Of a stretch of DNA of 43,175 bases, positions 13,722 through 32,522 are shown one piece after another. The number at the start of each line of letters is the position of its first letter. Position 1 is the stretch's first letter. The position numbers were made by a program, and so were the translations under genes. Below the pieces are notes generated by a model, which saw only the letters and a list, made by a program, of their open reading frames with translations, made no database searches and was not told where the DNA came from. Source of the stretch: Chitinophagaceae bacterium (lineage in GTDB: Bacteria > Bacteroidota > Bacteroidia > Chitinophagales > Chitinophagaceae); assembly GCA_035495345.1 (NCBI GenBank), contig DATJGC010000068.1, forward strand, positions 1 through 43,175, read 5' to 3'.

Positions 13722-14906
13722 ATGATCATTCTTCACATCATATTCTTTGTCATTTTTTTATACCTGGCGGTAAGCATTGCTTACTTCCTGGTGATTGCCA
13801 TTGCAGGCAGGTTTGGAAAATTGCCGCTGTACACGGCGCATGCGCACAAGAAAAATATTTGCGTTATCATTCCCTCGTATAAAGAAGACGCCATTATTGT
13901 AGATACGGCAAGAAAGGCGGCAGCGCATGATTACCCCGCCGCGCATTTTACTGTAATGGTAGTGGCAGACAGCCTTCAGCAGGAAACCATTGCGCAATTG
14001 CGCGCTATTCCTGTAACTGTGGTAGAGGCCAACGTGAGTATGAAATCACGTTCACTCAATGCTGCATTTCAAATACCGCCCGCTGGTGCTTTTGATATTG
14101 CGGTGATACTGGATGCTGATAATGTAATGGCGCCGGGTTGCCTGGAGAAAATCAATGACGCTTTTCACCAGGGTTGCCGCGCAGTGCAATGCCATAGAAC
14201 GGCCAAAAACCAGCATACTTCTGTAGCGGTGCTGGATGCCATCAGCGAAGAAATCAATATCAACCTGTTTCGCAGGGGGCCGGCGGTACTGGGTATTTCT
14301 GCAGCACCCATTGGCTCAGGGATGGCCTTTGATTTTGAACTTATCAAAGAAATTTTCAGCCTGCCGCATATTCTCAGTAACCCCGGCGAGGACCGTGAGA
14401 TTGATATGCAATTGATGAAGCGCGGTATTTTTATGCATTTCATCAATGACGCGTATGTATATGATGAAAAGGTTTCCAGCTCTGCCGTGTTTGAAAAACA
14501 AAGGGTTCGCTGGCTGGAAGCACAGATCAATCATGTAAAAAGATTTGCTGATGCCGATATGAAGGGTACGCCGTTGGGTATCACCGGGGCAGCAAAACTT
14601 TTCCAGAACCTGCTGCTGCCAAGGCTGCTGATGATAATGGTACTGGGTCTTTTTGCAGTGCTGCTGGTCTTGCAACAGCTTTTTTCGTTTAGTATTTTGC
14701 AGCCCGCACCCATTTACTGGTGGCTGATGATGGCCGCTTACGCCCTGGTGCTGTTCTTATCAGTGCCTGCGATGTTCTATAATAGTAAGACCCTCAGGGC
14801 CGTGGCACAAGTGCCCGTGCTGATGTTCTCCATGGTAAAAGCCCTGCTTAAAATAAAAGCCGGCAGAAAAGAATTCCTCCACACACCGAAAGTCTTCAAA
14901 TCGTAA
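13722..14906 (+). CDS. Membrane-embedded GT2 glycosyltransferase with the processive-synthase motif set
   Basis: 394 aa. It has an N-terminal TM helix, VIIPSYKED, ILDADNV, GEDREID, and the QRVRW (Q-R/Q-x-R-W) motif. C-terminal TM helices follow. Confidence 0.8.
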   Translation: MIILHIIFFVIFLYLAVSIAYFLVIAIAGRFGKLPLYTAHAHKKNICVIIPSYKEDAIIVDTARKAAAHDYPAAHFTVMVVADSLQQETIAQLRAIPVTVVEANVSMKSRSLNAAFQIPPAGAFDIAVILDADNVMAPGCLEKINDAFHQGCRAVQCHRTAKNQHTSVAVLDAISEEININLFRRGPAVLGISAAPIGSGMAFDFELIKEIFSLPHILSNPGEDREIDMQLMKRGIFMHFINDAYVYDEKVSSSAVFEKQRVRWLEAQINHVKRFADADMKGTPLGITGAAKLFQNLLLPRLLMIMVLGLFAVLLVLQQLFSFSILQPAPIYWWLMMAAYALVLFLSVPAMFYNSKTLRAVAQVPVLMFSMVKALLKIKAGRKEFLHTPKVFKS

Positions 14907-15261
14907 GATTTTTTTCACATGGTTATACACATTGAAGCAAATAACGTTTTTTGGCCTTTATTTTGCTCACGTCAGACCTCCCTATAAAAGCCTTAGACAA
15001 CGCAAATTGCCCCTGTAAAATCACTAAAAGTTGCTGCTTTTAGCATCCCTGTAACAAACAGTACCAAGAATTTCTATTGCTGCGCATTTCATTGCCTTTG
15101 CTGGTGATGCTATATGCAACATATTTTGTTTAATGCTATCTGATTATCAATGGTGAAACAACTTTATTTTAACAGGATCTTAATTTTGGTGTGGAATTTG
15201 CTGAGTGAAATCCAGAATTTTTCTGTTAATCCAATTTATCCTAACCCGAAAACCCAGTCTT

Positions 15262-18200
15262 ATGAAGGTTAAACTCTACTTCTTGCGGAGCCGATCTTTC
15301 TTATTGATTACTCTTTTCGCAATTCAATCCATCGTTTCATTTTCCCAGCAGGTGGCCAAATCGATTCCCTATCCTGCATCGCCGGATGGACTTATCGGTT
15401 TTCTACAGTTTACACCGCCTGATTACGGTTCTCAAAGACATCCACTGATTATTTTTCTTCATGGTATTGGAGAACGCGGCAATGGTACTTCACAACTCAA
15501 TATTGTTGCTAATAACGGTATTCCGCTTTATTGCCGTATGGGCGCCAGCATGCGTTTTACGGTTGGCGGTCAGACTTCGTCGTTCGTTGTACTTTCACCC
15601 CAGCTCAGCACGCAATATGGATACTGGCCAACCTTTTACGTAAAGGAAATGATTAACTACGCAAAGGCCAACCTCCAGATAGACCCCAACAGAATTTATA
15701 TTACCGGTCTTAGCCTTGGTGGTGGCGGCATCTGGCGCGTTATTACAGATACCTACAACTTCGATCATACATTTGATGCCAGCGTTGCAGCAGCCGCACC
15801 TGTTTGCGGAACACAGGAAGAAAATGATGCTGATTATTGCAGTACCATAGGTGCCAACAACCTGCCCATCTGGGCCTTTCACAGTATGGATGATGGTACT
15901 GTTGGCGTGGGCGCTACGCAGCACGCTGAAATTCTGTCTAATAATTGTCCTACAACCCCGCGCGCAAAATTTACTTATTACCAAAGCGGTGGCCACGGCG
16001 GCGCCTGGGTAAATGCCTATGACACCGGCCATATAACAAGAACCGTGGTAGTAAACGGGGTTGCCCAAAGTTTTACTGCTACACCTAACTTATATGAGTG
16101 GTTCCTGGGTTTTTCTCGTAATGCCGCCCCGGTTAATACACCGCCCACTGCCAACGCAGGGGCTGCGCAGATCATTACCCTGCCTACCAATACAGTAACG
16201 CTGAATGGAAGCGGCGCAGGTACCAATGGCGCCAGCATTGTATCTTATTCCTGGGCCAAAACCAGTGGTCCGGCGGGGGGCGCTATCAGCGTGCCGCTGG
16301 CCAATAGTACGCTGGTGACCGGCCTTGTGCAGGGCACCTATGTTTTCACGCTTACCGTAACAGATAATCACGGATTGTCTGCTACTTCTACTGTTTCTGT
16401 AACCGTAAACCCCCTGGTAAATCAATTACCGGTGGCCAATGCGGGCAATAATATTACGCTTACTTTACCTGCCAATAACACTACCTTAAACGGAACCGGT
16501 TCAAGGGATCCTGACGGTACCATTGCTACTTATGCATGGACCAAAACCAGCGGCCCTTCATCTTATACCATTGCTAATCCTGCTGCAGCCTCTACGGCAC
16601 TGAGCAATCTTACGCAGGGCGTTTATGTATTTACGTTACAGGTAACAGACAATGCCGGTGGAACGGCTTCTTCTACCGTAACTGTTACTGTAAATGCCCC
16701 GGCCAATCAAAAGCCTGTGGCCAATGCCGGCAGCAATATCAGTATTACCTTACCGGTAAACAACACTACTTTAAACGGTACTGCTTCCGCTGACCCGGAT
16801 GGTACCATTGCGTCTTATGCGTGGACAAAAACCAGCGGTCCGGCCAGCTACAGCATTGCCAATGCGGGTGCAGCCTCTACGGCACTCAGCAACCTTGTGC
16901 AGGGTGTTTACCAATTTAGATTGCAGGTAACAGACAACGCCGGTGCAACCGATACTGCTCTTGTAACCGTTACTGTAAATGCAGCGGCCAATCAGCCGCC
17001 TGTGGCCAATGCCGGTAGTAATATCAGCATTACCTTACCAACCAATAATATTACCCTTAATGGTACGGTCTCTGCTGACCCTGATGGCACAATCAGTACC
17101 TATGCATGGACCAAGACCAGTGGCCCCGCTACTTATACCATTGCCAATGCAGGTGCGGCCTCTACGGCAGTTACCGGGCTTGTACAGGGCGTTTATATAT
17201 TTACGTTACAGGTAACAGACAATGCAGGCGCCTCGTCTTCTTCTTTTGTTACTGTAACGGTTAATGCCGCCCCGGCACCCGCCAACCAATCGCCCATTGC
17301 CAGTGCAGGCAGCAATGTAAATATTACGCTGCCGCTGAACAGCGCCACCCTGAACGGCAGTGCTTCTTTTGACCCGGATGGATCCATTGCTTCCTATGCA
17401 TGGAGCAAGACCAGCGGCCCTTCGTCTTATTCTTTTGCAAACGCAACTGCCTATACTACCACAGTAAATAACCTTGTGGCCGGCGTTTATGTATTTACGT
17501 TACAGGTAACAGACAATGCGGGGGCTACTTCTTCTGCTACCGTTACTGTAACAGTGAACAATCTGCCTGCGCCTCCCAATCAATCGCCCATTGCAGACGC
17601 TGGCAGCAATAGTACTATCACCTTACCGGTAAACAGCGCAACAGTAAACGCAAGTGCTTCTTTTGACCCCGATGGATCTATTGCCAGCTATGCATGGAGT
17701 AAGACCAGCGGACCTGCACAATATGCTATTACTGATGCAAGCGCTTATACCACCACCGTTACCAATCTTGTACAGGGTGTATATGTGTTTACGGTAACCA
17801 TTACAGATAATTCCGGTGCTACCGCTACCGCTAACGTGAATGTAACCGTTAATGCACCAGCGCCGCCACCACCCGTGCCCAACCAGGTGCCGGTAGCACG
17901 TGCAGGCGCAGCTATTTCCATTACACTGCCAACAGACAATGCAGTACTTGATGGTACAGCTTCTTCAGATGCAGATGGAAATATTGTAAGCTATGCCTGG
18001 ACAAAAACCAGCGGTCCTGCCGGACATGCATTTGCGAATGCAGCAGCGGCCAGCACCAATGTTAGCAACCTGGTAGCCGGTACCTATGTTTTCACCTTAC
18101 AGGTAACCGATAATGCCGGTGCAACCGCCAGCGCAGATGTAACCGTTGCAGTAAACCCGGCCGCCGTTGCAACACCACCGGTAACAACCCCGCCGCCGCC

Positions 18201-19347
18201 TCCACCCCCTGTTTCACCCGCAACGCCGGTAAATAAGGCGCCCGTGGCCAATGCAGGCAACAATGTTGATATTACCCTGCCCACCAACAGTACTTCGCTG
18301 AACGGCAGTGGTTCTTATGATACGGATGGAAGTATTGCAGGGTATAAGTGGACAAAAACAAGTGGTCCTGCAGCGTACAGCATTGATAATGCAACAGGTG
18401 CCAGCACCACTATCAATAATCTCACAGAAGGCGTTTATGTATTTACGTTAGAAGTTACGGATAATGCCGGTGCAAGTGCCAGCGCTGCCGTAACGGTAAC
18501 AGTACATCCTGCTCCCAACCAGGCGCCGGTGGCCAACGCGGGTGCTGACATTGTACTCATGCTGCCTGAAAATACAACCGCGCTGGATGGCAGTGCATCT
18601 TATGACGCAGACGGGTCTATTGTTACGTACAGCTGGAACAAAGTAAGCGGACCGGGCGCCATCACCATTGTAAATTCTAACACCGCAAGTCCGTCCGTGA
18701 TTGGCTTGTCTGAAGGTCAATACAGTTTTGAATTAACCGTTACTGACAATAAAGGCTCAATTACCAAAGACCAGGTACTGGTTACCGTACAGCCTGCACC
18801 CAATAAAGCACCTACCGCAAAAGCAGGTGCAGATACCAGCATTGCACTGCCCGCTTCTTCTGCCGTGTTAACCGGTATATCTTCTTCAGATGAAGATGGC
18901 ACCATTGCAGGCTACGCCTGGAAACAGGTGAGCGGACCAGCCACGGCCGTCATCACAAACAATACGGCTGCAGTAACGCCGGTTACAGGTTTAGTAGAAG
19001 GTGAATATGTGTTTGAGCTAAAAGTAACAGACAATAGCGGTGCATCTGCTACAGTGCGTGTGAAGGTGAGTGTAACCAATAATTTCCGTTACAGCCAGTA
19101 TTTCAAATTGTACCCCAATCCTGCCAGCAACAGCATCAATTTTCAGTATATAGATGATAAGACGGGCAAATTACGGGTCATTGCCTATGATGTAAACGGA
19201 AGGCTGGTGGTAGAACAGGAGTTCAGCAAAGAACAATCGCTCATTACAAAGGAACTGAACATCAGTCACCTGAAAGCGGGTATGTACTACCTGGAAATCA
19301 GGCAGGCAGATGGCCAAAAGCTTATCAGGCCCTTTGTTAAGCAATAA
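15262..19347 (+). CDS. T9SS cargo P1: COG4099-type alpha/beta-hydrolase (carboxylesterase-like) head + 10 PKD-like repeats + type A C-terminal sorting domain
   Basis: The track ORF starts at GTG 15205. I prefer ATG 15262 (MKVKLYFLRSRSFLLITLFAIQSIVSFSQQ, a signal peptide). Hydrolase motifs are FLHGIGERGNG, GLSLGGGG (nucleophile elbow), HSMDDGTV and GGHGGAW. Ten repeats follow with the pattern PVANAG..ITLP...L.G..S.DPDG.I..Y.W.K.SGP....V.TL.VTDN.G. The C-terminus (LYPNPASNSINFQY...) is a type A CTD. Confidence 0.9.
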   Translation: MKVKLYFLRSRSFLLITLFAIQSIVSFSQQVAKSIPYPASPDGLIGFLQFTPPDYGSQRHPLIIFLHGIGERGNGTSQLNIVANNGIPLYCRMGASMRFTVGGQTSSFVVLSPQLSTQYGYWPTFYVKEMINYAKANLQIDPNRIYITGLSLGGGGIWRVITDTYNFDHTFDASVAAAAPVCGTQEENDADYCSTIGANNLPIWAFHSMDDGTVGVGATQHAEILSNNCPTTPRAKFTYYQSGGHGGAWVNAYDTGHITRTVVVNGVAQSFTATPNLYEWFLGFSRNAAPVNTPPTANAGAAQIITLPTNTVTLNGSGAGTNGASIVSYSWAKTSGPAGGAISVPLANSTLVTGLVQGTYVFTLTVTDNHGLSATSTVSVTVNPLVNQLPVANAGNNITLTLPANNTTLNGTGSRDPDGTIATYAWTKTSGPSSYTIANPAAASTALSNLTQGVYVFTLQVTDNAGGTASSTVTVTVNAPANQKPVANAGSNISITLPVNNTTLNGTASADPDGTIASYAWTKTSGPASYSIANAGAASTALSNLVQGVYQFRLQVTDNAGATDTALVTVTVNAAANQPPVANAGSNISITLPTNNITLNGTVSADPDGTISTYAWTKTSGPATYTIANAGAASTAVTGLVQGVYIFTLQVTDNAGASSSSFVTVTVNAAPAPANQSPIASAGSNVNITLPLNSATLNGSASFDPDGSIASYAWSKTSGPSSYSFANATAYTTTVNNLVAGVYVFTLQVTDNAGATSSATVTVTVNNLPAPPNQSPIADAGSNSTITLPVNSATVNASASFDPDGSIASYAWSKTSGPAQYAITDASAYTTTVTNLVQGVYVFTVTITDNSGATATANVNVTVNAPAPPPPVPNQVPVARAGAAISITLPTDNAVLDGTASSDADGNIVSYAWTKTSGPAGHAFANAAAASTNVSNLVAGTYVFTLQVTDNAGATASADVTVAVNPAAVATPPVTTPPPPPPPVSPATPVNKAPVANAGNNVDITLPTNSTSLNGSGSYDTDGSIAGYKWTKTSGPAAYSIDNATGASTTINNLTEGVYVFTLEVTDNAGASASAAVTVTVHPAPNQAPVANAGADIVLMLPENTTALDGSASYDADGSIVTYSWNKVSGPGAITIVNSNTASPSVIGLSEGQYSFELTVTDNKGSITKDQVLVTVQPAPNKAPTAKAGADTSIALPASSAVLTGISSSDEDGTIAGYAWKQVSGPATAVITNNTAAVTPVTGLVEGEYVFELKVTDNSGASATVRVKVSVTNNFRYSQYFKLYPNPASNSINFQYIDDKTGKLRVIAYDVNGRLVVEQEFSKEQSLITKELNISHLKAGMYYLEIRQADGQKLIRPFVKQ
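16141..19083 (+). repeat. Array of 10 tandem in-frame PKD-like repeat units (~92-116 codons each) inside P1
   Basis: I read the unit boundaries from the translation. The 28-nt string tatttacgttacaggtaacagacaatgc recurs exactly at 16628, 17198 and 17492. Confidence 0.9.
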
Positions 19348-19369
19348 TTATATTTTCTTATAAGAAGAA

Positions 19370-19399
19370 AGCAGTCCCCTTAGGCGGACTGCTTTTTTT
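19370..19399 (+). terminator. Rho-independent terminator after P1
   Basis: An 8-bp stem pairs agcagtcc (19370-19377) with ggactgct (19386-19393). The loop is 8 nt and the T-run extends to 19399. It lies 23 nt after the stop codon. Confidence 0.75.
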
Positions 19400-19575
19400 A
19401 TGTAGATTCTCTAAAAATAGCCTAATTTTAATTTCTTCGATATCCTCTCAAAGGCCTTTTGGTTCCCCTGGCTTAAATCCATTATTTTATTTTAATGTTG
19501 TTTTCCTCTGTAAAGCGGGCTTGCCTCTTTTACAGCAGGCTGTATTGTTTTGTAAAAACTGAATTAATTGTTGTT

Positions 19576-21600
19576 ATGAAAAGAAATTTTTTACTTGTTT
19601 GCTTACTCTCTTTTGTATTTAATCTTCAGGCACAACTTACAACAGGCTCTATACCGTATGCGGGTGCTCCAGGAGGAAGAATTTACTTTTACCAGTATAA
19701 GCCCCCGCAATACAATACCAGCTCTTCGCTTCCTTTAATTGTATCTCTGCATGGGGGAGGGGAAGAAGGGCCGGCGGATGGGTCAGTACTATCGCGTGTG
19801 ATAACCTACGGCCTGCCGCAGATTGTTGCGCAAGGTGGCGTTTTGCAGGCTACTTACCAGAATGTAACGGAAGGCTTTGTAATGGTGGCTCCACAGGCAG
19901 CTACCGGTTTGTCTGGCAACTGGCCAACCTACTATGTAGATCAGATGATCGACTACGCTATTCAAAACCTGAAGGCAGATCCGAACAGAGTATTCCTTAC
20001 TGGATATAGTAATGGGGGTAATGGTGTGTGGAAATATGCCACCTCATCTGCCGCGGCTGCTTCCAGGCTTGCAGGCCTTATTCCGGCCGCCGCAGTGGCA
20101 GTATCCGGAGGCACTAATTTCTGCAACATTGCGCAAAATAAAGTGGCCACCTGGGTACAGCACGCTTATCATGATGAGTACGGAAATGTGCAGGAGGCAA
20201 TAGATTATACAAATGCTATCAATGCCTGTTCACCGGTAGTGCCGGCCGTAGATACTATCTACGAGTTTGGAAGCCATAACATTTACATGTTTAGGACGTA
20301 TGAACTAACAAACACGTATCAGTATCCAAATCTCTTTCAATGGATGCTAAAGGTGAACCGTAACCTTAACCCTTCAACTAACCAAAACCCGGTGCCTGTC
20401 ATTGCCGGGCCTTCAACGGTTACCCTTACCGCACCGTTGAATAAACGTAACCTTCCCGTACTTGATGGCAGCGGCTCGTATGATCCGGATGATATAATAA
20501 TGAATTATTTGTGGGAACAAACCGGAGGGCCGGTCAATTTATTGCCAGCACCAGCAGATAGAACGCAAATAGACGTGGACCAACGTCGCCAATGGCCTGT
20601 GGTATCAATACCAGTTACACCCACCAACTACGGCGTTCCCGTGGGTACCTACACATTCAGACTACGTGTAAAAGATTATCTCACCTCCAAACCTGGCCAT
20701 ACGCAGTTTGCAACAAAAACGATCAACGTTGTGCTGCCACCAGTGGGTGCCGGTCCGGTAGCCGATGCTGGGGATGATATCATACTCAGTGGCAACGCTA
20801 CCAGCGCCCAACGCTCTGGAAGTTTTGAAAATACTTACGGAACCGGCAGTAATATCCAATACAACTGGACGATTGTTTCTGGCCCTCCAGGTGCCCAGTT
20901 GAGGACTTTTAATGGAAGCGCCCCCTATACGGCGGGTGATAATAATGTAATGTTCAGCAACCTGGTAAATCCGGGCACCTATGTATTTCAGTTTAGCATC
21001 AGCAACACAGCCGGCTCCAGCACAGACCAGGTATCCGTCATAAAACTGGCTACCCTGCCCGTAAGCTACGCCTACATCACCGGCAGTAATATTGGTACCG
21101 CAAATGTCATCAACTGGTCTACCAGCACTGAAGTGAATAGTGATCGGTTTGATATACAGCGCAGCACAGATGGCACAAACTTTACGGTAATCGGCTCCGT
21201 TAGTGCAAGAGGTGGCACCAATGCCACTGATTACAGCTTTGAAGATGTCAATGCACCGCTGGGTATCAGCTATTACAGGTTGCTGCAGGTAGATAAAGAT
21301 GGTAAGAGTAGCCTTTCAAAAGTGGTTTCGGTTAACAACCGCCGCAGCGGGCTTGTAATAGAAAAATATCCTAACCCTGTGCATGATAACCTCACTGTAA
21401 CATTGAAGGGTACCATAACGGGTAAAATGCAGGTATTGATTGCAGATATGCAGGGAAAAACAATGATGCAGCAGCAGTGGCAGAAAGATATGCCGCAGTT
21501 GAAGAAAGTGATAAACGTTGGAGCGTTGCAAAACGGTGTATACCAGATGATCATCATCAGCGGAAGCGATAAGATGATTAGTAGTTTTGTCAAGTATTAA
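19576..21600 (+). CDS. T9SS cargo P2: divergent COG4099-type alpha/beta-hydrolase + 2 PKD-like domains + pre-CTD beta domain + type A CTD
   Basis: The track ORF starts at 19495. The signal peptide begins at MKRNFLLVCLLSFVFNLQAQ (ATG 19576). Hydrolase motifs are SLHGGGEEG, GYSNGGNG, HAYHDEYG and GSHNIY. The CTD reads YPNPVHDNLTVTL... Confidence 0.85.
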   Translation: MKRNFLLVCLLSFVFNLQAQLTTGSIPYAGAPGGRIYFYQYKPPQYNTSSSLPLIVSLHGGGEEGPADGSVLSRVITYGLPQIVAQGGVLQATYQNVTEGFVMVAPQAATGLSGNWPTYYVDQMIDYAIQNLKADPNRVFLTGYSNGGNGVWKYATSSAAAASRLAGLIPAAAVAVSGGTNFCNIAQNKVATWVQHAYHDEYGNVQEAIDYTNAINACSPVVPAVDTIYEFGSHNIYMFRTYELTNTYQYPNLFQWMLKVNRNLNPSTNQNPVPVIAGPSTVTLTAPLNKRNLPVLDGSGSYDPDDIIMNYLWEQTGGPVNLLPAPADRTQIDVDQRRQWPVVSIPVTPTNYGVPVGTYTFRLRVKDYLTSKPGHTQFATKTINVVLPPVGAGPVADAGDDIILSGNATSAQRSGSFENTYGTGSNIQYNWTIVSGPPGAQLRTFNGSAPYTAGDNNVMFSNLVNPGTYVFQFSISNTAGSSTDQVSVIKLATLPVSYAYITGSNIGTANVINWSTSTEVNSDRFDIQRSTDGTNFTVIGSVSARGGTNATDYSFEDVNAPLGISYYRLLQVDKDGKSSLSKVVSVNNRRSGLVIEKYPNPVHDNLTVTLKGTITGKMQVLIADMQGKTMMQQQWQKDMPQLKKVINVGALQNGVYQMIIISGSDKMISSFVKY

Positions 21601-21623
21601 TACCAATGATGATTTTATAAATG

Positions 21624-21666
21624 ATACGAACAATGATGGCAAACAAGCGTCATTGTTCGTATTTAT
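21624..21666 (+). terminator. Terminator-like hairpin after P2
   Basis: A perfect 13-bp stem pairs atacgaacaatga (21624-21636) with tcattgttcgtat (21650-21662). The loop is 13 nt. The trailing T-tract is only short (ttat). Confidence 0.5.
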
Positions 21667-21766
21667 ACCAGCGGTATTTGCAGTAGTTTTACGAGGTGTT
21701 CTTTAAATAACTGTTTAACTGACACTTATGGACATTAAAATATTAAAATATTTTCCACAACGGCTC

Positions 21767-21783
21767 TTTTGGTATAGTTGTTG
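21767..21783 (+). promoter_or_regulatory. Conserved 17-mer TTTTGGTATAGTTGTTG upstream of P3 (candidate promoter or operator)
   Basis: It is identical to 25528-25544 upstream of P4. Both copies are preceded by A/T-rich sequence and lie ~250-265 nt upstream of the start codon. Confidence 0.3.
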
Positions 21784-22016
21784 AACGATTTTCCCCCGGT
21801 AAAATTACGCTTACACCGTCCCGTTTCCACAAGAAGAATTCCAATTATTTATTGCATTTGCTATTGCTTGCCTGCAGTGTTGCTGTAACAGTGTGGTCAT
21901 TGCTGCTATTCCGGCTTATTTATCAAATTAAGGAGAGAGACTAAATTATACATATACCGCCATGGAGAGATGGCGGTACTAAAACGAACATCGTACACTT
22001 TAAACTGCATTGCACT

Positions 22017-25000
22017 ATGAGAACAATTGTACGGGCAAGTATGCTTGCGCTAAGCTTATTGTCTTTTTGCACGCTCACATTTTCACAACAGGTTGCAAAG
22101 ACGATTCCGTATCCTGCCTCGCCAGATCGCGTTATTGGTTTCCTGGAATTTCGTCCGGCCGATTATGGCAGCCAGCAACATCCCCTCATCATTTTTCTGC
22201 ATGGTATTGGTGAACGTGGTAACGGCACGTCTCAAATTAATTCGGTGGCCGCCAACGGTATCCCTTACTATTGCTCACGCGGCGCCAGTATGCGTTTTAC
22301 TGTAGACAGACAAACATCTTCCTTTGTTGTACTCTCGCCTCAATTGAGTACACAATATGGCTACTGGCCAACTTTTTATGTAAAGGAGATGATTAAGTAT
22401 GCAAAGCAGAATCTTTCTATTGACCCCAACAGAATTTACATCACCGGCTTAAGCCTTGGTGGTGGTGGTATCTGGAGAGTGATTACCGATACGGAAAACT
22501 GGGACAATACCTTTGATGCTGGCATTGCCGCCGCAGCGCCGGTATGTGGTACACAGGAAGAAAATGATGCTGAATTCTGCAATACCATTGGCGCCAATCG
22601 TTTGCCCATCTGGGCTTTTCATAGTATGGATGATGGCACTGTAGGCGTGGGGGCCACCCAGCATGCCGAGATTCTTGCCAAGAATTGCAAGGTAAAACCA
22701 GATCCCATCTTCACTTATTACCAGAGTGGCGGCCATGGTGGTGCATGGGTAAATGCCTATGATACCGGTCATATCACCCGCACAGTAAACGAGAACGGCA
22801 AACAGAAAAATTTTACGGCTTCCCCTAATTTATACGAATGGTTTTTGAGCCAGAGCAGGAATAACCAGGGCCAACCTGCCAACACGCCTCCAGTGGCCGA
22901 TGCAGGCGCTGCTCAAATCATTACGCTGCCTGTTAATAGCCTTACCTTATCTGGTAATGGTACAGGTACCAACGGCGCCAGCATCAGTTCTTACAGCTGG
23001 ACCAAGACCAGCGGACCGGCAGCAGGCGTCATCAGCCTTCCACTTTTAAATACAACACTTGTTACCGGTCTTGCACAAGGCAATTATGTGTTTACCCTCA
23101 CCGTAACAGATAACCATGGTTTATCCAGCAGCGCAAGTGTAAATGTAACCGTTAACCCGGCCGCCAATCGTGCACCTACAGCCAACGCAGGCCAGGATAT
23201 AAACATCACTTTGCCTGATAATACTGTTACTCTTAATGGAAGCGGTAATGACCCGGATGGTTCTATCTCGGCCTATAACTGGACAAAAAGCAGCGGTCCC
23301 GGCGGTGCAAGAATTGCCAATCCCAATGCAGCCAGTACCAATGTCAGCAATCTCAGCGCGGGTGTATATGTCTTTACATTGAAGGTAACAGACAATGCAG
23401 GTGCAACTGCCAGCAACGATGTAACCGTAACGGTTAATGCCGCACCCAATAAGGCACCGATTGCCTATGCGGGCCCTAACCAGCAAGTTACATTGCCCGA
23501 TAATAAGGTTACGCTGGATGGTGGCACTTCCTTTGACCCCGATGGCCAGATTGATGCGTTTTACTGGACAAAAGAAAGCGGCCCTGCATCTTACAAAATC
23601 AATAACCAGAATGCAGCCAAGATAAATGTAAGTAACCTGGTGGCCGGTACCTATGTATTTAACCTGCAGGTAAGAGACAATGATGGCGCTACCAGCAATT
23701 CAAGCGTAAGCGTAACGGTTAACCCAGAGGCCGCCGCACAAGCGCCACCTGCTGCCAATGATGAACAACCTATTGGGTATATAAAAATGACTGAAGGCCC
23801 GTCACAGGGATGTGATGACAGTCGCACCGCCGGCAGGTTTGCCATCTACAGCAGCAGCATCGCCAAAGGCAGTCTTGTTTACCTTGACGCGGCCCATACG
23901 CAATTGTTTGATGGCGGATGGAACTGGTACGCCTATTCACCCACCAGGAGCGGATCTGTAACGCAATGTTTTGCTATTTATCCGAACGGCGGCATGGACC
24001 TCATTACTGCCTGCAACGGAAGCACCTCAGAGGCCAGGCCAACGCCGCCACCGCCACCTCCGCCACCACCGGCTGCCAACCAGTTGCCCGTGTCTAATGC
24101 TGGCCCTGATATTGACATTACCCTGCCCGTGAGCAGTGCCCAACTAAGCGGCAATGGTTCTTACGACCCCGATGGCACCATCTCTGGCTATTGGTGGATA
24201 CAGGATCGCGGCCCGTCATCCGTAACTTTCTCAGACCAGGCAGCTTCCAACTGTGTTGTCAGCAACCTGGTAGAAGGATTGTACAATTTTACATTGCAGG
24301 TGAAAGATAATACCGGTACTCCTACTTACTCATCCATGATTGTAAGGGTACATCCTGCACCAGCAGTGAACAACCAGCCAATAGGGTATATAAAAATTGC
24401 TGCCGGACCGGCCCAGGCCTGTGATGATAAATCAAGAGGCGGCAGGTTCCCGATTTACAGCGATAATATAGCCAAGGGCAGCCTTGTATACCTTGATGCC
24501 GCGCATACGCAACTGTTTGACGGTGGCTGGAACTGGTATTCTTACTCACCTGCAGAACATGGTGAAGTAACACAGGCCTTTGCCATCTACCCCAACGGAG
24601 GCATGGATTTACTCACCGGCTGTTCCGTAAACGGACCTTCTGCACCCGCGCCGCCTCCTGCACGGAGCAACCTGCTGGGCTATATAAAAATTACTACCGG
24701 CCCGGGACAGGCTTGTGATGATAATACTACTGATGGAAGAATGGCGCTCTATGGCAAAAGCATTGCCAACGGCAGCTATGTATATACCGATGAAGCCATG
24801 ACGCAGATCTTTGATGGCGGTTGGAACTGGTACTCCTTTACACCCACTTATGGTGGTGCCGTTACACAGGCTTTTGCAGTATTCCCCATTGGTACCATTG
24901 GACTGCTCACCAATTGCAGTAACAGTAGTGCAAGGCTGGCCGCTGACCAATCCGCTGCGCTGCAAGACAGCATCAATGCCGCCAGTGCAAGATCAATTGC

Positions 25001-25283
25001 CAATGCTTCCGCTACGCTGCTGGGTACTGGTAAATTATCACTGTATCCTAACCCTGTGCGTACCTCCAGTACCATTGAGTTAAGCAGTACAGAAAACAGC
25101 AACAAGCTGGTGAAATTGTATACTGCAGGCGGAACCCTGATAGCGAGTTATCGCTGGCAGGTAGTTAAGGGACTTAACAGGTTTACGCTGCAACAGGTAG
25201 CCGGGTTGAGCGCTGGTCTTTACTATATCAGTATCAGCGACAACAAAGGACCGGAGCAAAAACTTAAGTTTATAAAAATGTAG
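22017..25283 (+). CDS. T9SS cargo P3: COG4099-type alpha/beta-hydrolase + 4 PKD-like repeats + 3 copies of an unassigned Cys-bracketed module + type A CTD
   Basis: The signal peptide is MRTIVRASMLALSLLSFCTLTFSQQ. The hydrolase motifs match P1 (FLHGIGERGNG, GLSLGGGG, HSMDDGTV, GGHGGAW). PKD-like repeats lie at about 22887-23745 and 24079-24357. The unassigned modules are at 23766-24020, 24375-24625 and 24669-24920. The CTD reads LYPNPVRTSSTIEL... Confidence 0.9.
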   Translation: MRTIVRASMLALSLLSFCTLTFSQQVAKTIPYPASPDRVIGFLEFRPADYGSQQHPLIIFLHGIGERGNGTSQINSVAANGIPYYCSRGASMRFTVDRQTSSFVVLSPQLSTQYGYWPTFYVKEMIKYAKQNLSIDPNRIYITGLSLGGGGIWRVITDTENWDNTFDAGIAAAAPVCGTQEENDAEFCNTIGANRLPIWAFHSMDDGTVGVGATQHAEILAKNCKVKPDPIFTYYQSGGHGGAWVNAYDTGHITRTVNENGKQKNFTASPNLYEWFLSQSRNNQGQPANTPPVADAGAAQIITLPVNSLTLSGNGTGTNGASISSYSWTKTSGPAAGVISLPLLNTTLVTGLAQGNYVFTLTVTDNHGLSSSASVNVTVNPAANRAPTANAGQDINITLPDNTVTLNGSGNDPDGSISAYNWTKSSGPGGARIANPNAASTNVSNLSAGVYVFTLKVTDNAGATASNDVTVTVNAAPNKAPIAYAGPNQQVTLPDNKVTLDGGTSFDPDGQIDAFYWTKESGPASYKINNQNAAKINVSNLVAGTYVFNLQVRDNDGATSNSSVSVTVNPEAAAQAPPAANDEQPIGYIKMTEGPSQGCDDSRTAGRFAIYSSSIAKGSLVYLDAAHTQLFDGGWNWYAYSPTRSGSVTQCFAIYPNGGMDLITACNGSTSEARPTPPPPPPPPPAANQLPVSNAGPDIDITLPVSSAQLSGNGSYDPDGTISGYWWIQDRGPSSVTFSDQAASNCVVSNLVEGLYNFTLQVKDNTGTPTYSSMIVRVHPAPAVNNQPIGYIKIAAGPAQACDDKSRGGRFPIYSDNIAKGSLVYLDAAHTQLFDGGWNWYSYSPAEHGEVTQAFAIYPNGGMDLLTGCSVNGPSAPAPPPARSNLLGYIKITTGPGQACDDNTTDGRMALYGKSIANGSYVYTDEAMTQIFDGGWNWYSFTPTYGGAVTQAFAVFPIGTIGLLTNCSNSSARLAADQSAALQDSINAASARSIANASATLLGTGKLSLYPNPVRTSSTIELSSTENSNKLVKLYTAGGTLIASYRWQVVKGLNRFTLQQVAGLSAGLYYISISDNKGPEQKLKFIKM
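23766..24920 (+). repeat. Three in-frame copies of a ~84-aa unassigned module (GYIK..GP.Q.CDD....GR...Y...IA.GS.VY.D...TQ.FDGGWNWY...P....VTQ.FA..P.G...L...C). One PKD-like repeat lies between copies 1 and 2.
   Basis: Copies are at 23766-24020, 24375-24625 and 24669-24920, read directly from the P3 translation. Pro-rich linkers lie between them. Confidence 0.85.
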
Positions 25284-25307
25284 ACTGAATATAATTAGTT
25301 CGTCAAT

Positions 25308-25346
25308 GGGGTGCAGTTGTGAAAACAATGGCACCCTATTTTTTTT
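25308..25346 (+). terminator. Rho-independent terminator after P3
   Basis: The stem pairs gggtgc (25309-25314) with gcaccc (25331-25336). A T8 run at 25339-25346 follows. It begins 25 nt after the stop codon. Confidence 0.55.
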
Positions 25347-25527
25347 GCCGTTACACTTTCCCTGCCTCAATATTTGTGTGCACTTGTTTTTTTAAAAGCA
25401 AGCGCTAAGTAAATTTCTTTTTCTGCTCAGCAATACTACTTATTCAGTTGTATGTTTACGTCTTCCTTCCTCGTAGAACCACGCTGGTGCTGTGTTTCAG
25501 CAAAATTTAGTTTAAAAAAAAATAATA

Positions 25528-25544
25528 TTTTGGTATAGTTGTTG
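25528..25544 (+). promoter_or_regulatory. Conserved 17-mer TTTTGGTATAGTTGTTG upstream of P4 (candidate promoter or operator)
   Basis: It is an exact copy of 21767-21783 and lies 264 nt upstream of ATG 25792. Confidence 0.3.
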
Positions 25545-25791
25545 GTTTATACACTACGCCAATATTCTAATGAAAACCTAAGCTGCTACAAGTTATTCTG
25601 CTACAGGTTCTCACTTAGAATTCTCTTATAGATTTTTGTTTTGCCTAAGATTGCTTGACATAGATAGTATTTTTTCTATTTGTTTTTCCATATCCGTCGA
25701 GGAAATGCGCTTAGCAATCTTACTATCATTGTATTATAATTTTATCCGATATCTCTTTTTGATCCGTATTCAATCTTAAACTGCATATTCT

Positions 25792-27750
25792 ATGAGAACT
25801 ACTATGAAAACCCTTGCCATTGCTGCGTGCAGCATACTTTTTAGCATGCAGCTGCTGGCACAGCAAACAGCGAAAACGCTATCCTATTCTTCGGCCCCGG
25901 GGGGGATTATCGGCTTTTTAGAATTTAAGCCTTCAGATTACGGCACACAGAAACATCCATTGATCATTTTTCTGCATGGCATTGGTGAAAGAGGTAATGG
26001 CACCACGCAAATTAATACAGTGGCCAACAATGGCATACCTTATTACTGCGCCAATGGAGCCACCATGCGTTTTACCGTGGCTGGCCAAACTTCTTCTTTT
26101 GTGGTGCTGTCACCGCAGCTGAGTACCACTTATGGTTATTGGCCAACTTTTTATGCCAAGGAAATGATCAAATATGCTAAGGCTAACCTGCAGATAGATA
26201 CCAACCGTATCTATGTTACCGGTTTAAGTCTTGGCGGAGGCGGTATCTGGCGACTGATTACCGATGCACAGGGCTTTGATTATACGTATGATAAAGGCCT
26301 TGCGGCCGCTGCACCAATCTGCGGTACGCAGGAAGAAACCGATGCAGATTTTTACGGTACCATTGGTGCCAACCATCTGCCGGTATGGGCTTTTCACAGT
26401 ATGGATGATGGCGTTGTAGGTGTAGGCGCTACACAGCATGCTGAAATTCTCGGCAATATTGTAGGCGTTAACAGCCCTGCTATTAAATTTACGTATTACC
26501 AGAGCGGTAATCATTCCGGTGCCTGGGTAAATGCCTATGATACCGGTCATATCACACGCACAGTAAACGTAAATGGCAGCCTCCAGAGCTTTACCGCCAA
26601 TCCTAATTTGTATGAATGGTTTTTGAGCAATACAAGGGCAGTTAACACGCCCCCTGTGGCATTGGCCGGCGCAGCACAATCTATTACACTGCCTTCCACT
26701 ACCGCCACATTAAATGGCAGCGGCACGCCTACCAATGGCGCCAGCATTGCTACTTATGCCTGGACAAAAACCAGCGGTCCGGCCGGTGGCACCATTACCA
26801 CTGCTAATGCCGCTACTACAACCGTCACCGGTTTATCACAGGGCGTATATGTTTTTACGCTTACCGTAACAGACAACCATGGTCTTTCTGCCAGTTCTAC
26901 TGTTACTATTACCGTGGTGCCTGCACCAGTGGCCATCGCTGGTCCGCCACAAACCATCAGCACTACTTCTACCGTGCTGGATGCTGCAGCTTCCTATTCT
27001 CCAAATGGCTCCATTACTGCTTATAGCTGGACGCAGGTTGCCGGCCCCGCGGCTGCTACCATTGCAAACCCCAGCTCTGCCACACCCATTGTATCCAACA
27101 TGCTGGCGGGTAGTTCATATTCTTTCCAGCTTACCGTTACCGATGTACTGGGTGCCAGCGGATCTGCCGTTACCGGTGTTACGGTAACCATGGCCGCGCT
27201 GCCGGTAGAGTTTGCCTACTTCAACGCACAGAAAAATACAGCTGGTAACCTTTTACAATGGGGTACTGCCACCGAATTAAACAATGATTATTTTGTGGTA
27301 GAACGCAGTGAAGATGGTAGTCATTTTGCCAGCATTGGTAAGGTAGCGGGCGCTGGCAGCAGTACGATGCCGCACAGCTATAGTTTTACAGACAGTAAAT
27401 CATTGGCTGCTACCAATTACTATCGTTTAAAACAGGTAGATAAGAACGGCAGCTTCACACTGTCAAAAGTAATTACAGTGCGCAACGACAATTATACCGG
27501 TGGCAGCCTGGTATATCCTAACCCGGTATTGGCAAGCATGTCTGTTACCATTGACAACGAAGTGAAAGGAAAAGGCCAGATTGCTGTGTACGATGTTATG
27601 GGCCATACCGTAAAACAGGCATCGCTGAGTAAAAGCGAACGTCTGCTCAGCACATCCATCGCTATGAATGATCTTGTGCCGGGTATTTATATGGTGGAAG
27701 TAAAGATTGGCGATGCTTTCAGGATCACCAAACGCGTAATGAAACAATAA
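25792..27750 (+). CDS. T9SS cargo P4: COG4099-type alpha/beta-hydrolase + 2 PKD-like repeats + pre-CTD beta domain + type A CTD
   Basis: The signal peptide is MRTTMKTLAIAACSILFSMQLLAQQ. Hydrolase motifs are FLHGIGERGNG, GLSLGGGG, HSMDDGVV and GNHSGAW. The CTD reads VYPNPVLASMSVTI... Confidence 0.9.
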   Translation: MRTTMKTLAIAACSILFSMQLLAQQTAKTLSYSSAPGGIIGFLEFKPSDYGTQKHPLIIFLHGIGERGNGTTQINTVANNGIPYYCANGATMRFTVAGQTSSFVVLSPQLSTTYGYWPTFYAKEMIKYAKANLQIDTNRIYVTGLSLGGGGIWRLITDAQGFDYTYDKGLAAAAPICGTQEETDADFYGTIGANHLPVWAFHSMDDGVVGVGATQHAEILGNIVGVNSPAIKFTYYQSGNHSGAWVNAYDTGHITRTVNVNGSLQSFTANPNLYEWFLSNTRAVNTPPVALAGAAQSITLPSTTATLNGSGTPTNGASIATYAWTKTSGPAGGTITTANAATTTVTGLSQGVYVFTLTVTDNHGLSASSTVTITVVPAPVAIAGPPQTISTTSTVLDAAASYSPNGSITAYSWTQVAGPAAATIANPSSATPIVSNMLAGSSYSFQLTVTDVLGASGSAVTGVTVTMAALPVEFAYFNAQKNTAGNLLQWGTATELNNDYFVVERSEDGSHFASIGKVAGAGSSTMPHSYSFTDSKSLAATNYYRLKQVDKNGSFTLSKVITVRNDNYTGGSLVYPNPVLASMSVTIDNEVKGKGQIAVYDVMGHTVKQASLSKSERLLSTSIAMNDLVPGIYMVEVKIGDAFRITKRVMKQ

Positions 27751-27755
27751 TTAAA

Positions 27756-28349
27756 TTACCTGAAAGGTTTATAAAATGAAAAGGTGGCAAGTTCCAGCAT
27801 GGGCTTGTCACCTTTTGTATCTCCATAACCCAGTATTTCATCGTAGGCACTGAGATCATAGGCCTGGCGGATGCGTGCTACTTTCTCCTGTCCATGGCAA
27901 TTACGGTTTTCAATCTTACCGGTGATACGCCCTTCCTTCACTGCTAACTTTGTGCCCAGCAGTTGTACGCCGTTGGTCTGGCACCAGTGCTGTAACCAGT
28001 TTTCTGCAGAGGCGGAAACAATGACCACCTCGGTACCCGCTGCCAATAGTTTTTTTATTTCCAGCAAAGCCTTTGGTCTTACCAGTGATGGCAGCGCTGT
28101 TGCTGAAAACTGGTTGCTCATTTCATTGAAGCGCTCCTGCGTCATCCTCCCAAAAAAATATTGCATCATCCGCTCTTTAGCGGCCTGGTTAGAAATGAGC
28201 CCAGCCTTCCATGCAATGATGAAGGGTGCATTGAGGATAAAACCCATGTAGAACCTTGCAGATCCTTTGCAGTATTTTATTATTTCCAGGAAACTGTCTT
28301 TTGTAGTAATGGTGCCGTCAAAATCAAAAAAGGCGATTCTCTTTTTCAC
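27756..28349 (-). CDS. HAD-IB family phosphatase
   Basis: 197 aa. HAD motif I is FFDFDGTIT and the C-terminal motif is GYGDTKGDKPML. The GTG start overlaps the stop of the upstream SDR gene by 4 nt (GTGA). Confidence 0.8.
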   Translation of the reverse strand: MKKRIAFFDFDGTITTKDSFLEIIKYCKGSARFYMGFILNAPFIIAWKAGLISNQAAKERMMQYFFGRMTQERFNEMSNQFSATALPSLVRPKALLEIKKLLAAGTEVVIVSASAENWLQHWCQTNGVQLLGTKLAVKEGRITGKIENRNCHGQEKVARIRQAYDLSAYDEILGYGDTKGDKPMLELATFSFYKPFR

Positions 28350-30031: not shown

Positions 30032-30139
30032 ATAACGCTTGGTTGTACGGGCGCCAAGATACTCCAATAATGCTGACTGTACAATACCACTTTGCAGGAT
30101 GGGTTGGGTTTGCTACTTTTAGCCGCGAAATTAACCGCT

Positions 30140-31741: not shown

Positions 31742-31763
31742 GAGAGAAATTAAAAAGTCAAAA

Positions 31764-32054
31764 TTAAAAATTAAAAAGTCTTTGGCCTGGTTGGTTTCAC
31801 GCGGCGTGCGCAATGAGGCAGCGAGCGCAAAGATGCACAAGCCTCTTTATCCCTTTCTCTCTTTGTTTCGCTTAGCCCTCTGTTAGCTCTGTTGTCTCTG
31901 TGCGAAAAAATTAAAAATTAAAAAGTCTTTGGCGTTGGTTTCACGCGGCGAGCGCATTGAGGCAGCGAGCGCAAAGATGCACAAGCCTCTTTATCTCTGT
32001 CTCTCTTTGTTTCTCTTAGCCCTCTGTTAGCTCTGCTGTCTCTGTGCGAAAAAA
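31764..32054. repeat. Two tandem direct repeat units (~147 and ~144 bp)
   Basis: Unit 1 runs 31764-31910 and unit 2 runs 31911-32054. Both start with attaaaaattaaaaagtctttggc and end with ctctgtgcgaaaaaa. They differ by a 3-nt indel and a few substitutions. Confidence 0.9.
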
Positions 32055-32066
32055 TTGAAAGGTATA

Positions 32067-32520: not shown

Positions 32521-32522
32521 AC

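Follow-up and report, generated by a model that had tools for sequence, protein, structure and literature searches.

A conserved tandem array of predicted T9SS-exported esterases in a surface-glycan locus of Chitinophagaceae

Introduction

Why would four genes for predicted secreted hydrolases sit between two groups of glycan genes? The question is raised by a 43,175-nucleotide stretch of DNA from a Chitinophagaceae bacterium (Bacteroidota; assembly GCA_035495345.1, contig DATJGC010000068.1, positions 1 to 43,175), which we call the window. It carries four paralogous genes on one strand, P1 to P4, which a first-pass annotation of the bare sequence had read as type IX secretion system (T9SS) cargo. 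Soil Chitinophagaceae are abundant and their surface biology is largely uncharted; this locus offers a concrete example of a genetic tie between T9SS cargo enzymes and the pathway of a surface glycan. The explanation that we favor, with a probability of roughly 55%, is that P1 to P4 form an old, conserved array of four independently transcribed genes, and that their products are T9SS-exported enzymes of the serine carboxylesterase type working with the flanking surface-glycan genes.

Results

Four paralogous genes share one architecture

Overall, the ends of the open reading frames (ORFs) and the Pfam and NCBIfam matches agreed with the plan first proposed for the array: each gene encodes a signal peptide, an alpha/beta-hydrolase domain of ~260 aa (hereafter the head), PKD repeats and a YPNP-type C-terminal domain (CTD) (Table 1). 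As judged by inspection and hydropathy, each of the four ATG starts yields a typical signal peptide with a basic n-region, a hydrophobic core (10-residue Kyte-Doolittle mean of 2.3-3.1) and an end of the form S/A-Q↓Q, the arrow marking the predicted cut. In Bacteroidota, cleavage by signal peptidase I habitually leaves an N-terminal Gln, and the ends of P1 to P4 fit this habit. Starting at 15205 or 19495, which would lengthen the ORFs, is less plausible.

The K319L-like PKD family (PF22352) matched P1 to P4 above its cut-off, with 832.6, 44.7, 313.3 and 137.3 bits over 10, 2, 4 and 2 stretches, respectively. The T9SS type A CTD was recognized in all four proteins both by TIGR04183 (46.4, 28.8, 49.1 and 48.0 bits; cut-off 23) and by PF18962, Por_Secre_tail (58.6, 40.5, 47.9 and 44.3 bits; cut-off 27). 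The 43-kb window also includes a PorP/SprF homologue and a cargo gene of type B (CHU_C); the T9SS core genes gldKLMN, sprA, porU and porV lie outside it. The intergenic gaps measure 355, 228, 416 and 508 nt, and the 3' end of P4 is 5 nt from a convergent HAD gene. A search for tRNAs found none.

The head resembles EstA-type carboxylesterases

Among sequences in the PDB, the best matches of the head were 4Q82, a phospholipase/carboxylesterase from Haliangium ochraceum (E 3e-20), EstA of Thermotoga maritima (3DOH, E 4e-17) and LC-Est1C (3WYD, E 2e-5). Against Abhydrolase_2 (PF02230, cut-off 23 bits), P3 scored above the cut-off (26.8 bits), P1 and P4 below it (18.8 and 20.1 bits), and P2 gave no match; a precomputed PF02230 match is carried by many head homologues. 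We then aligned the four heads with 88 homologues. Across these 92 sequences the columns H38-G39, E42, G44, G120-x-S122-x-G124-G125, D182 and H216 were invariant (numbering from window:15349-16170; P1 numbering is obtained by adding 29), and HG.GE.G, G(L/Y)S.GG.G.W, the Asp and the His were invariant both here and in an alignment of 17 sequences. This invariance, together with purifying selection on the heads of P1, P3 and P4, agrees with the earlier statement that all four keep Ser, Asp and His and that none looks like a dead copy.

An AlphaFold2 model of the head, built on the 92-sequence alignment, reached a predicted local distance difference test score (pLDDT) of 94.3 and a predicted template modelling score (pTM) of 0.91. 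In this confident model the nucleophile elbow, formed by strand 111-121 and helix 123-133, has Ser122 at its turn; Asp182 follows strand 174-179 (beta7) and His216 follows strand 207-211 (beta8). Relative to the modelled strands and helices, these are the canonical positions of an alpha/beta-hydrolase triad. A Foldseek search of the PDB with the model returned 4Q82 first (E 4e-17, template modelling scores 0.68/0.79), followed by 3DOH (E 2e-15) and 3WYD, and after this group an Aspergillus acetyl xylan esterase, PETases, cutinases, dienelactone hydrolase and DPP-IV-type catalytic domains. As to carbohydrate esterases of the CAZy families (such as CE1), the sole remote matches were to 9J07, an acetyl xylan or feruloyl esterase (E 0.0015 by sequence, 2e-9 by Foldseek). 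Just after the His, the heads of P1, P3, P4 and their near relatives have an extra beta-hairpin (model residues 230-243), which is not present in P2 and more distant homologues according to the alignment and the model.

Thus, by predicted fold and by motifs, the head is a member of an EstA/COG4099-like esterase group. Of the families against which the first-pass annotation had proposed to check the heads, CTD models and EstA/COG4099-type esterases were matched, and neither the cut-offs of the polyhydroxybutyrate (PHB) depolymerase models nor Peptidase_S9 were reached. We consider it probable that P1 to P4 are T9SS-exported, catalytically active serine esterases. A word-indexed protein search gave 419 matches to the head family at E<=1e-5, and at least 559 relatives were present among GTDB representative genomes, the best of them 76% identical, so that the species of the window itself is not among these genomes. 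An exact look-up of P4 in public assemblies gave no record. The heads define an uncharacterized esterase subfamily with hundreds of members.

The copies are old and under purifying selection

Head identity is 77% for P1/P3, 70% for P1/P4 and 71% for P3/P4, and 33-34% between P2 and the others, in line with the original description of three similar copies and a divergent P2. Compared codon by codon, the heads of P1, P3 and P4 agree in 75-82% of their amino acids, whereas agreement at third codon positions drops to 43-48% and synonymous sites are close to saturation. These are thus old copies, kept by strong purifying selection; they are neither recent duplicates nor decaying copies. Recent duplication or expansion of PKD repeats was rejected on these values and because tandem repetition at the DNA level is limited to a 285-nt PKD unit, present 2.8 times with 76% identity.

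We compared the window with related loci, which are labelled by L-numbers. In a neighbor-joining tree, P2 fell in an old clade to which each array (L001, L004, L005, L012, L014 and L029) contributes a single gene, and P3 and P4 each paired with their positional orthologue in L001. Three sets of positional orthologues have been kept in another group of genomes (L011, L016, L018, L019 and L020). In L004 (2603-14660), the three heads that are not of the P2 type cluster together and with L002, not with their positional counterparts in the window, and the leaders are clearly of the P3 and P4 types; this suggests gene conversion among heads in that lineage.

The array stays with glycan genes across relatives

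Outside Bacteroidota, head homologues are single proteins of ~250 aa without stalks (Planctomycetota, Verrucomicrobiota, Ignavibacteria and Anaerolineae). In Chitinophagaceae, stalked head genes occur nearly always as same-strand tandem arrays of 2-6; among cultured relatives, Paraflavitalea speifideaquila (L027) has the array, and Gynurincola endophyticus (L034) has one head gene in that slot. Gene order in L004 and in the metagenomic locus L152 is as in the window: a long gene, a P2-type gene of ~690 aa, a long gene and then the last gene, which is cut by the locus end in both, so that its length cannot be read there. A short last gene (~640-690 aa, beside the HAD gene) is complete in L001, L011, L016, L018, L019 and L020. 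The repeated order and the short last gene indicate that stalk length is a conserved property of array position.

Globally, the neighborhood follows a conserved order: GT2a, Bac_transf, GT2b, GT2c, the head genes, HAD, a short-chain dehydrogenase/reductase (SDR), an optional FAD oxidase, UbiA, a 549-aa membrane protein, RecG and a type B cargo gene. Linkage was counted in the 18 Bacteroidota loci whose heads are flanked by 3 kb or more on each side. Glycan partner genes were present on at least one side in 14 of them and on both sides in 5. Among 41 distant loci a single one was linked, a Bacteroidota metagenome-assembled genome with a 1331-aa head gene. In four Cytophagales-like loci (L031, Marivirga; L032; L035, Ohtaekwangia; L036), there is one giant head gene, coding for 1763-2131 aa, and Bac_transf-GT2c-GT2b stands directly upstream of it. 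On the other flank, L023, L025 and L034 keep only the last array member together with the downstream module, and L022 ends 42 nt after its head gene. Linkage to one flank or the other in diverged lineages means that head genes stay with half of the same glycan neighborhood. Homologues are thus found in tandem arrays tied to the same glycan genes, not as the scattered singletons that would have counted against the first reading of the array.

This persistent synteny, read from gene order, is the main argument for a functional tie between the heads and the glycan genes. Since the array is embedded in the glycan locus in a conserved manner, the leading candidate for the substrate of the heads is the cell's own exported polysaccharide, a tentative assignment.

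Three further observations came from the related loci. The giant gene of Marivirga sericea (L031, 9845-15514) encodes 16 K319L-like PKD repeats and a type B CTD (CHU_C) in place of type A, so the design of head plus stalk has moved between two T9SS sorting signals. The closest database homologue of the heads, P0001 (283 aa, 82% identical), comes from L201 (ENA contig_29807), an assembly full of broken genes in which PKD pieces, UbiA, GT2, RecG and DUF7948 show the same synteny; we therefore rejected standalone heads of ~285 aa as a separate architecture, since at least P0001 is a fragment of a frameshifted long-read assembly, and many short head-only matches may be artefacts of this kind. Finally, large proteins of another, distant class, which match the head model weakly, were seen in L039 (1626-5222, minus strand), L028 (4375-9492, plus strand) and L032 (16835-19744, plus strand), and also in L015, L017, L019 and L037. 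The three that we scanned have PA14 and FN3 domains; of these, L039 alone gave a Pfam esterase match, and two, L039 and L028, showed a type A CTD. Genes of this class adjoin the same glycosyltransferase genes or the head gene, and the window has none.

Hairpins, a shared motif and leaders suggest four transcription units

The first-pass annotation had taken P1 to P4 for independent units with hairpins after P1 to P3. RNA folding agreed: the three hairpins have z-scores between -3.8 and -5.8 (Table 1), the one after P2 with a weaker T tail. Upstream of P3 and P4 we found an identical 17-mer, which is also conserved in relatives. The -7 box of Bacteroidota promoters is TAnnTTTG, and the 17-mer resembles it with one mismatch. 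We read it as a candidate promoter element, which would make the leaders ~240 nt long. The variant upstream of P1 is only suggestive, because the search pattern came from these very sites.

As a 15-mer, the same motif starts 247-265 nt before the P3-type and P4-type orthologues of L001, L004 and L152, and it precedes the P3-type gene of L199 at the same distance. In L160 it precedes the P4-type gene, where the first in-frame ATG, at 169 nt, lies upstream of the real start. These motif-bearing relatives share ~70% DNA identity with the window. Among the matches listed in a metagenome scan with a 16-mer form of the motif, most were unrelated contigs and the relevant ones were L152, L160 and L199; the motif alone is therefore not specific at that scale. 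A scan for sigma-70 promoters, which does not cover Bacteroidota promoters, was uninformative (25 sites against 24 expected).

Two leader elements are conserved as well. In the P3-type leader hairpin, GAGAG of the loop is conserved, and the stem is ACCGCCAT/ATGGCGGT in the window and CTGTTAT/ATAACAG in four relatives, with pairing retained; 6 of the 9 pairs are kept through double changes, all of which come from one sequence. The P4-type element contains a predicted stem of the pattern ATTCTA.TGA.AACC...GGTT.TCA..TAGAAT. When a covariance model of this block (R1) was run over 717 kb of related loci, it matched only P4-type orthologues, with six matches that include L201, on which it was not trained. 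Rfam returned no known RNA in the leaders at gathering or E<=1 thresholds. In sum, the hairpins, the conserved motif and the leaders support four separate, probably individually regulated units, and bring conserved leader elements upstream of cargo genes to light.

P2, P3 and P4 carry accessory domains

P3 contains three copies of an 86-aa module with the pattern GYIK...C...GR..Y...DGGWNWY...C, which we call the GYIK domain. Pfam gave no match to it at E<=10, and a word-indexed protein search gave none. Exhaustive HMMER searching of 1.84 billion cluster representatives found 24 proteins at E<=1e-3, of which 14 reached E<=1e-10. The 13 best matches and three weaker ones end in a CTD-like tail, and four of these also have the head. 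The remaining matches are mostly short and start inside or just past a PKD repeat, which suggests that they are fragments of the same head-PKD-CTD architecture. Among the loci that we fetched, GYIK was confined to P3-type orthologues (three copies in L001, two each in L005 and L009; also L002 and L004). A model from the 24 domain sequences had a pLDDT of 94.7 and a pTM of 0.84, and its search for a PDB fold gave no match (best E 1.4, template modelling score at most 0.34). The domain is small, predicted to be extracellular, disulfide-bracketed, aromatic-rich and confined to these enzymes, from which we infer a putative substrate-binding module. Being unannotated, confidently folding and without a PDB fold match, it stands as a candidate for a new carbohydrate-binding module.

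P2 and P4 share a different domain of ~95 aa between the PKD repeats and the CTD, with the pattern LPV.(Y/F)AY...W.T..E.N...F.(I/V).RS.DG..F..IG.V...G......Y.F.D......YYRL.QVD.(D/N)G. Pfam gave nothing significant for it; its sole weak match was a NedA-like galactose-binding domain in P2 (E 0.002).

The flanks encode two glycan modules

The first-pass annotation had placed the array directly downstream of a polysaccharide locus with two O-acyltransferases. The upstream exopolysaccharide locus with its two Acyl_transf_3 genes is real, and the array is not merely downstream of it: it lies between two glycan modules. Upstream, the opposite strand encodes an outer-membrane efflux-type protein, a protein of the Wzy_C/O-antigen-ligase type, the two Acyl_transf_3 proteins, a GT1 and a Wzz/tyrosine-kinase protein. 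On the strand of the array, a PgaC-like GT2 gene is followed by one for a receiver-only response regulator (11106-11510, plus strand; 134 aa; Response_reg E 1e-15), then by Bac_transf, the polyprenyl glycosylphosphotransferase, and by two further GT2 genes. The protein matching Wzy_C, the O-antigen ligase/polymerase family, has 501 aa (1392-2897, minus strand); should it act as a ligase, this locus could produce a lipid-linked glycan of the surface, like the anchor of T9SS type A cargo in other Bacteroidota.

Downstream, the SDR scored 188 bits on the DprE2 model (cut-off 250) and the UbiA protein 236.9 bits on NF008977, decaprenyl-phosphate phosphoribosyltransferase (cut-off 234). The 549-aa protein has ~10-11 predicted transmembrane helices and a soluble C-terminal domain of 200 aa, and gave no significant match in Pfam, NCBIfam, the PDB or the GT-C families. 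In most relatives a DprE1-like FAD_binding_4/ALO gene stands between SDR and UbiA (for example L011, 13191-14525); the window, L001 and L005 have none at that position, and the pentose made might differ accordingly. No flippase of the MATE, SMR or GtrA type was recognized among the window ORFs scanned. For the extracytoplasmic addition of pentofuranose side chains, Kelly et al. (2024, PMC11127046) describe a pathway with a polyprenyl phosphoribose synthase, a phosphatase, optional DprE1/E2 epimerization, a flippase and a GT-C enzyme. By analogy, the downstream flank looks like a polyprenyl-phosphate pentofuranose donor and side-chain pathway, with a GT-C assignment that is architectural only.

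Farther downstream (35716-40656, plus strand), the PorP/SprF homologue comes immediately after the type B T9SS cargo gene, whose 1246-aa product has DUF7948, four PKD repeats and CHU_C. Such a pair is the usual cognate pairing, and it is syntenic with the array in many relatives. Between the glycan genes, two stretches, 31742-32522 (~780 nt) and 10755-11105 (~350 nt), have no ORF of at least 100 aa.

Table 1. Coordinates of the array genes, their domains and transcription signals, and the flanking glycan genes in the window.
Feature	Position	Strand	Description	Basis
P1	15262-19347	+	1361 aa; signal peptide; head 15346-16125; ten K319L-like PKD repeats ~16129-19071; type A CTD 19108-19344	ORF call, Pfam/NCBIfam domains, head hidden Markov model envelope, PDB sequence match
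P2	19576-21600	+	674 aa, divergent paralogue; head 19639-20367; two degenerate PKD repeats; ~95-aa pre-CTD domain 21055-21339; type A CTD 21367-21597
P3	22017-25283	+	1088 aa; head 22086-22865; four PKD repeats; three GYIK domains; type A CTD 25041-25280; orthologue L001_5449
P4	25792-27750	+	652 aa; head 25861-26640; two PKD repeats; ~95-aa pre-CTD domain 27199-27486; type A CTD 27511-27747; orthologue L001_9857
GYIK copy 1	23766-24023	+	P3 aa 584-669; Cys-bracketed, DGGWNWY motif
GYIK copy 2	24375-24632	+	P3 aa 787-872
GYIK copy 3	24669-24926	+	P3 aa 885-970
Hairpin after P1	19368-19400	+	Intrinsic-terminator-like, T7 run; -21.6 kcal/mol, z -5.8
Hairpin after P2	21623-21663	+	16-bp stem, weak T tail; -21.0 kcal/mol, z -5.5
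Hairpin after P3	25305-25347	+	Intrinsic-terminator-like, T8 run; -20.8 kcal/mol, z -3.8
Variant motif	15184-15200	+	TTTTGGTGTGGAATTTG; starts 78 nt upstream of P1 ATG; weaker evidence
Promoter-like 17-mer	21767-21783	+	TTTTGGTATAGTTGTTG; starts 250 nt upstream of P3 ATG
Identical 17-mer	25528-25544	+	TTTTGGTATAGTTGTTG; starts 264 nt upstream of P4 ATG
P3-type leader hairpin	21956-21977	+	~40 nt upstream of ATG; loop GGAGAG
P4-type leader element	25530-25623	+	~94-nt block: motif and predicted ~60-nt stem	Alignment, RNAalifold
Bac_transf	11563-12723	+	Polyprenyl glycosylphosphotransferase	Domain match, synteny
GT2	12772-13680	+		Domain match, synteny
Membrane GT2	13722-14906	+		Domain match, synteny
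HAD-IB phosphatase	27756-28349	-		Domain match, synteny
DprE2-like SDR	28346-29077	-		Domain match, synteny
UbiA type	29141-30067	-	Polyprenyl-phosphate phosphoribosyltransferase	Domain match, synteny
549-aa protein	30092-31741	+	Polytopic membrane protein	Transmembrane count, synteny

Discussion

Several points weigh against a role of the array with the glycan genes, and we gather them here. The compared loci are phylogenetically related, so the synteny counts are not independent and part of the linkage may be inheritance, not selection. The single-head Chitinophagaceae loci L022, L023, L025 and L034 have no glycosyltransferase genes in ~10 kb upstream. The two Acyl_transf_3 genes, which had hinted at an acylated exopolysaccharide, were not seen in most syntenic relatives within 10-kb flanks. 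On the enzymatic side, the heads do not reach the curated esterase models of NCBIfam, their best PDB relatives are only 24-28% identical, no characterized close homologue of the heads was found, and we know of no natural substrate for the 4Q82, 3DOH and 3WYD enzymes. The runs holding the window sequence were soil-metagenome contig runs only, with no clear RNA run among them.

A specific link of the array to the two O-acyltransferases was also considered and is unsupported by synteny in the 10-kb flanks, where an Acyl_transf_3 homologue occurred only in L039.

The best placed alternative, which we still consider unlikely, is that P1 to P4 are secreted feeding depolymerases for exogenous ester-rich polymers (polyhydroxyalkanoates (PHA), cutin or suberin, acetylated or feruloylated plant polysaccharides), and that their position in a glycan locus is a historical accident of Chitinophagaceae genome organization. 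Extracellular depolymerases are built from a catalytic domain, a linker and a binding module; P1 to P4 share this plan, batteries of paralogues with differing binding modules are typical of polymer degraders, and the sequence is of soil origin. Acetyl xylan esterase, PETases and cutinases are the nearest folds after the EstA group. The heads gave partial matches to the catalytic domain of short-chain-length PHA (scl-PHA) depolymerase type 1 and to PHB-depolymerase-family models (E 1e-8 to 1e-10), but the scores fell far below the curated cut-offs (35-40 bits against 150, 22-38 against 108), the best being 40.5 bits for NF050058 (cut-off 150) and 37.7 bits for TIGR01840 (cut-off 107.85), both over part of the model. 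Therefore the heads are kept out of the PHB depolymerase family, and membership in it was rejected. Nor did the window genes scanned near the array include SusC/SusD or catabolic genes. Feeding also fits poorly with a link to the glycan genes that is kept from one order to another, in loci that bear the labels Marivirga, Ohtaekwangia and uncultured Cytophagales, and that is seen on whichever flank survives in a lineage; at such an evolutionary distance gene order is otherwise expected to be scrambled. If the substrate is nevertheless an exogenous polyester or acetylated plant polymer, the heads are new candidates for biomass or polyester hydrolysis.

An improbable alternative explains the co-location by a glycan that serves as the covalent anchor of T9SS type A cargo, an analogue of the lipopolysaccharide A-LPS, and is not the substrate of the heads. 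Type A cargo is tethered to a surface glycolipid in P. gingivalis and T. forsythia (PMC7468200). Also in its favor, the window locus includes Bac_transf (WbaP-like), a protein of the Wzy_C/O-antigen-ligase type and Wzz. However, the CTD of the Marivirga homologue, which has the same synteny, is of type B, and this type is not known to use glycolipid anchoring, and an anchor would serve all type A cargo, leaving the linkage to one enzyme family unexplained.

That P1 to P4 are non-catalytic adhesins or surface-coat proteins whose head merely binds a ligand is very hard to believe: long PKD stalks with CTDs, such as theirs, are also typical of Bacteroidota adhesins, but all 92 homologues, divergent P2 included, keep Ser, Asp, His and the HG oxyanion motif unchanged, and the heads are under strong purifying selection. 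Equally remote is the idea that the heads are serine peptidases (S9-like, under the COG4099 label "predicted peptidase") processing surface proteins, since, for all that several homologues are named "predicted peptidase" (JGI) and one "prolyl oligopeptidase family serine peptidase" (NCBI), and that Foldseek lists the catalytic domains of DPP-IV and DPP8 (template modelling score ~0.53-0.57), carboxylesterases are the best matches by both sequence and fold, P1 to P4 have no beta-propeller or other S9 N-terminal domain, and Pfam Peptidase_S9 has no match in the window proteins.

We therefore return to exported esterases that work with the glycan genes, for which the following course can be proposed. 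P1 to P4 would cross the inner membrane by the Sec pathway, and cutting of the signal peptide would leave Gln as the new N-terminus. The T9SS would recognize them by the type A CTD, which would be removed, the protein being attached to a surface glycolipid or released. The PKD repeats may form a rigid stalk whose length, fixed per array position (~10, 2, 4 and 2 repeats), would set the distance between head and membrane. Through its Ser-Asp-His triad and HG oxyanion motif, the head would cleave, or possibly transfer, ester-linked groups on a polymer, and paralogue-specific modules (GYIK in P3, the ~95-aa domain in P2 and P4) could give each enzyme a target of its own. If the polymer is the cell's own polysaccharide, the Bac_transf/GT2 genes would supply its backbone, the module of UbiA, HAD, SDR and polytopic membrane protein would decorate it, and the array would remodel the exported glycan outside the cell. 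The T9SS could then deliver glycan-editing enzymes in addition to feeding enzymes and adhesins.

A bolder version, speculative and with the odds clearly against it, would join the array and both flanks into one Bacteroidota module. Hydrolases held at fixed distances from the outer membrane would edit a pentofuranose-decorated polysaccharide by deacylation or by acyl transfer like that of antigen 85, GYIK would be a new, polymer-specific glycan-binding fold, and the leaders would be a dedicated cis-regulatory layer.

How do these genes compare with known systems? With EstA/COG4099-type carboxylesterases (3DOH, 4Q82 and the C-domain of 3WYD), the heads share the fold, the GxSxGG elbow, the HG motif and the order Ser-Asp-His; identity is only 24-28%, and the heads of P1, P3 and P4 have the extra hairpin at 230-243. 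EstA (3DOH) likewise pairs the esterase with an Ig-like domain. The matched esterase domain of EstA occupies residues 159-367 of 380, so any extra domain must be N-terminal, unlike the C-terminal stalk of P1 to P4, and the solved chains of the EstA group, with 228-380 residues, are too short for a multi-PKD stalk and a CTD.

A T9SS cargo hydrolase on an Ig-like stalk is an already known design. The general class of T9SS type A cargo enzymes on Ig-like or PKD spacers, with the cargo of P. gingivalis and T. forsythia as examples (PMC7468200), shares with P1 to P4 a signal peptide, a functional domain, an Ig-like spacer and a Por_Secre_tail CTD. What sets P1 to P4 apart from T9SS type A cargo in general is that the head belongs to an uncharacterized esterase family and that the genes form a positionally conserved tandem array in a glycan locus. 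The scl-PHA depolymerases (NF050058, TIGR01840) have a similar modular plan and match partially over the region from oxyanion motif to Ser; by contrast, P1 to P4 lack a PHA substrate-binding domain and are predicted to be exported by the T9SS. PelA, PgaB and AlgL/AlgX are extracytoplasmic polysaccharide-modifying enzymes encoded in biosynthetic loci. P1 to P4 resemble them in that a hydrolase or esterase gene is embedded in the locus of the polymer acted on, a parallel in function that would hold only if the glycan is indeed the substrate; PelA, PgaB and AlgL/AlgX differ in having other folds, in being periplasmic and single-copy, and in having no stalks.

The downstream flank shares with pentofuranose-addition systems, including the mycobacterial decaprenylphosphoryl arabinose (DPA) pathway, a UbiA-type phosphoribosyltransferase, a HAD phosphatase, a DprE2-like SDR, in most relatives a DprE1-like oxidase, and a polytopic membrane protein with a soluble C-terminal domain as in GT-C enzymes (PMC11127046). 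In the window, by contrast with these systems, no flippase was recognized, the 549-aa protein has no GT-C match and DprE1 is missing at its position. Secreted esterases are part of no published pentofuranose-addition system. Antigen 85 proteins are secreted alpha/beta-hydrolases that acylate the arabinofuranose-containing wall glycan made via the DPA pathway. The heads match these mycobacterial mycolyltransferases weakly, at the nucleophile elbow (E 0.003-0.02 over ~75 residues); the likeness is marginal and there is no evidence of transferase chemistry in the heads, which makes it a lead, not a match.

Our literature search on T9SS, esterase, PKD and Chitinophagaceae found no published description of an array of this kind in a glycan locus. 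Undescribed in the literature searched are the conserved array with its fixed stalk lengths, its slot between genes for a glycan backbone and genes for pentofuranose-type side chains, kept from Chitinophagaceae into Cytophagales, the GYIK domain and the conserved leaders. To call the whole a novel system without a name, as the first-pass annotation did, was too strong for the parts, which follow a known design with an EstA/COG4099-like head, and is fair for the arrangement of the array within its glycan locus.

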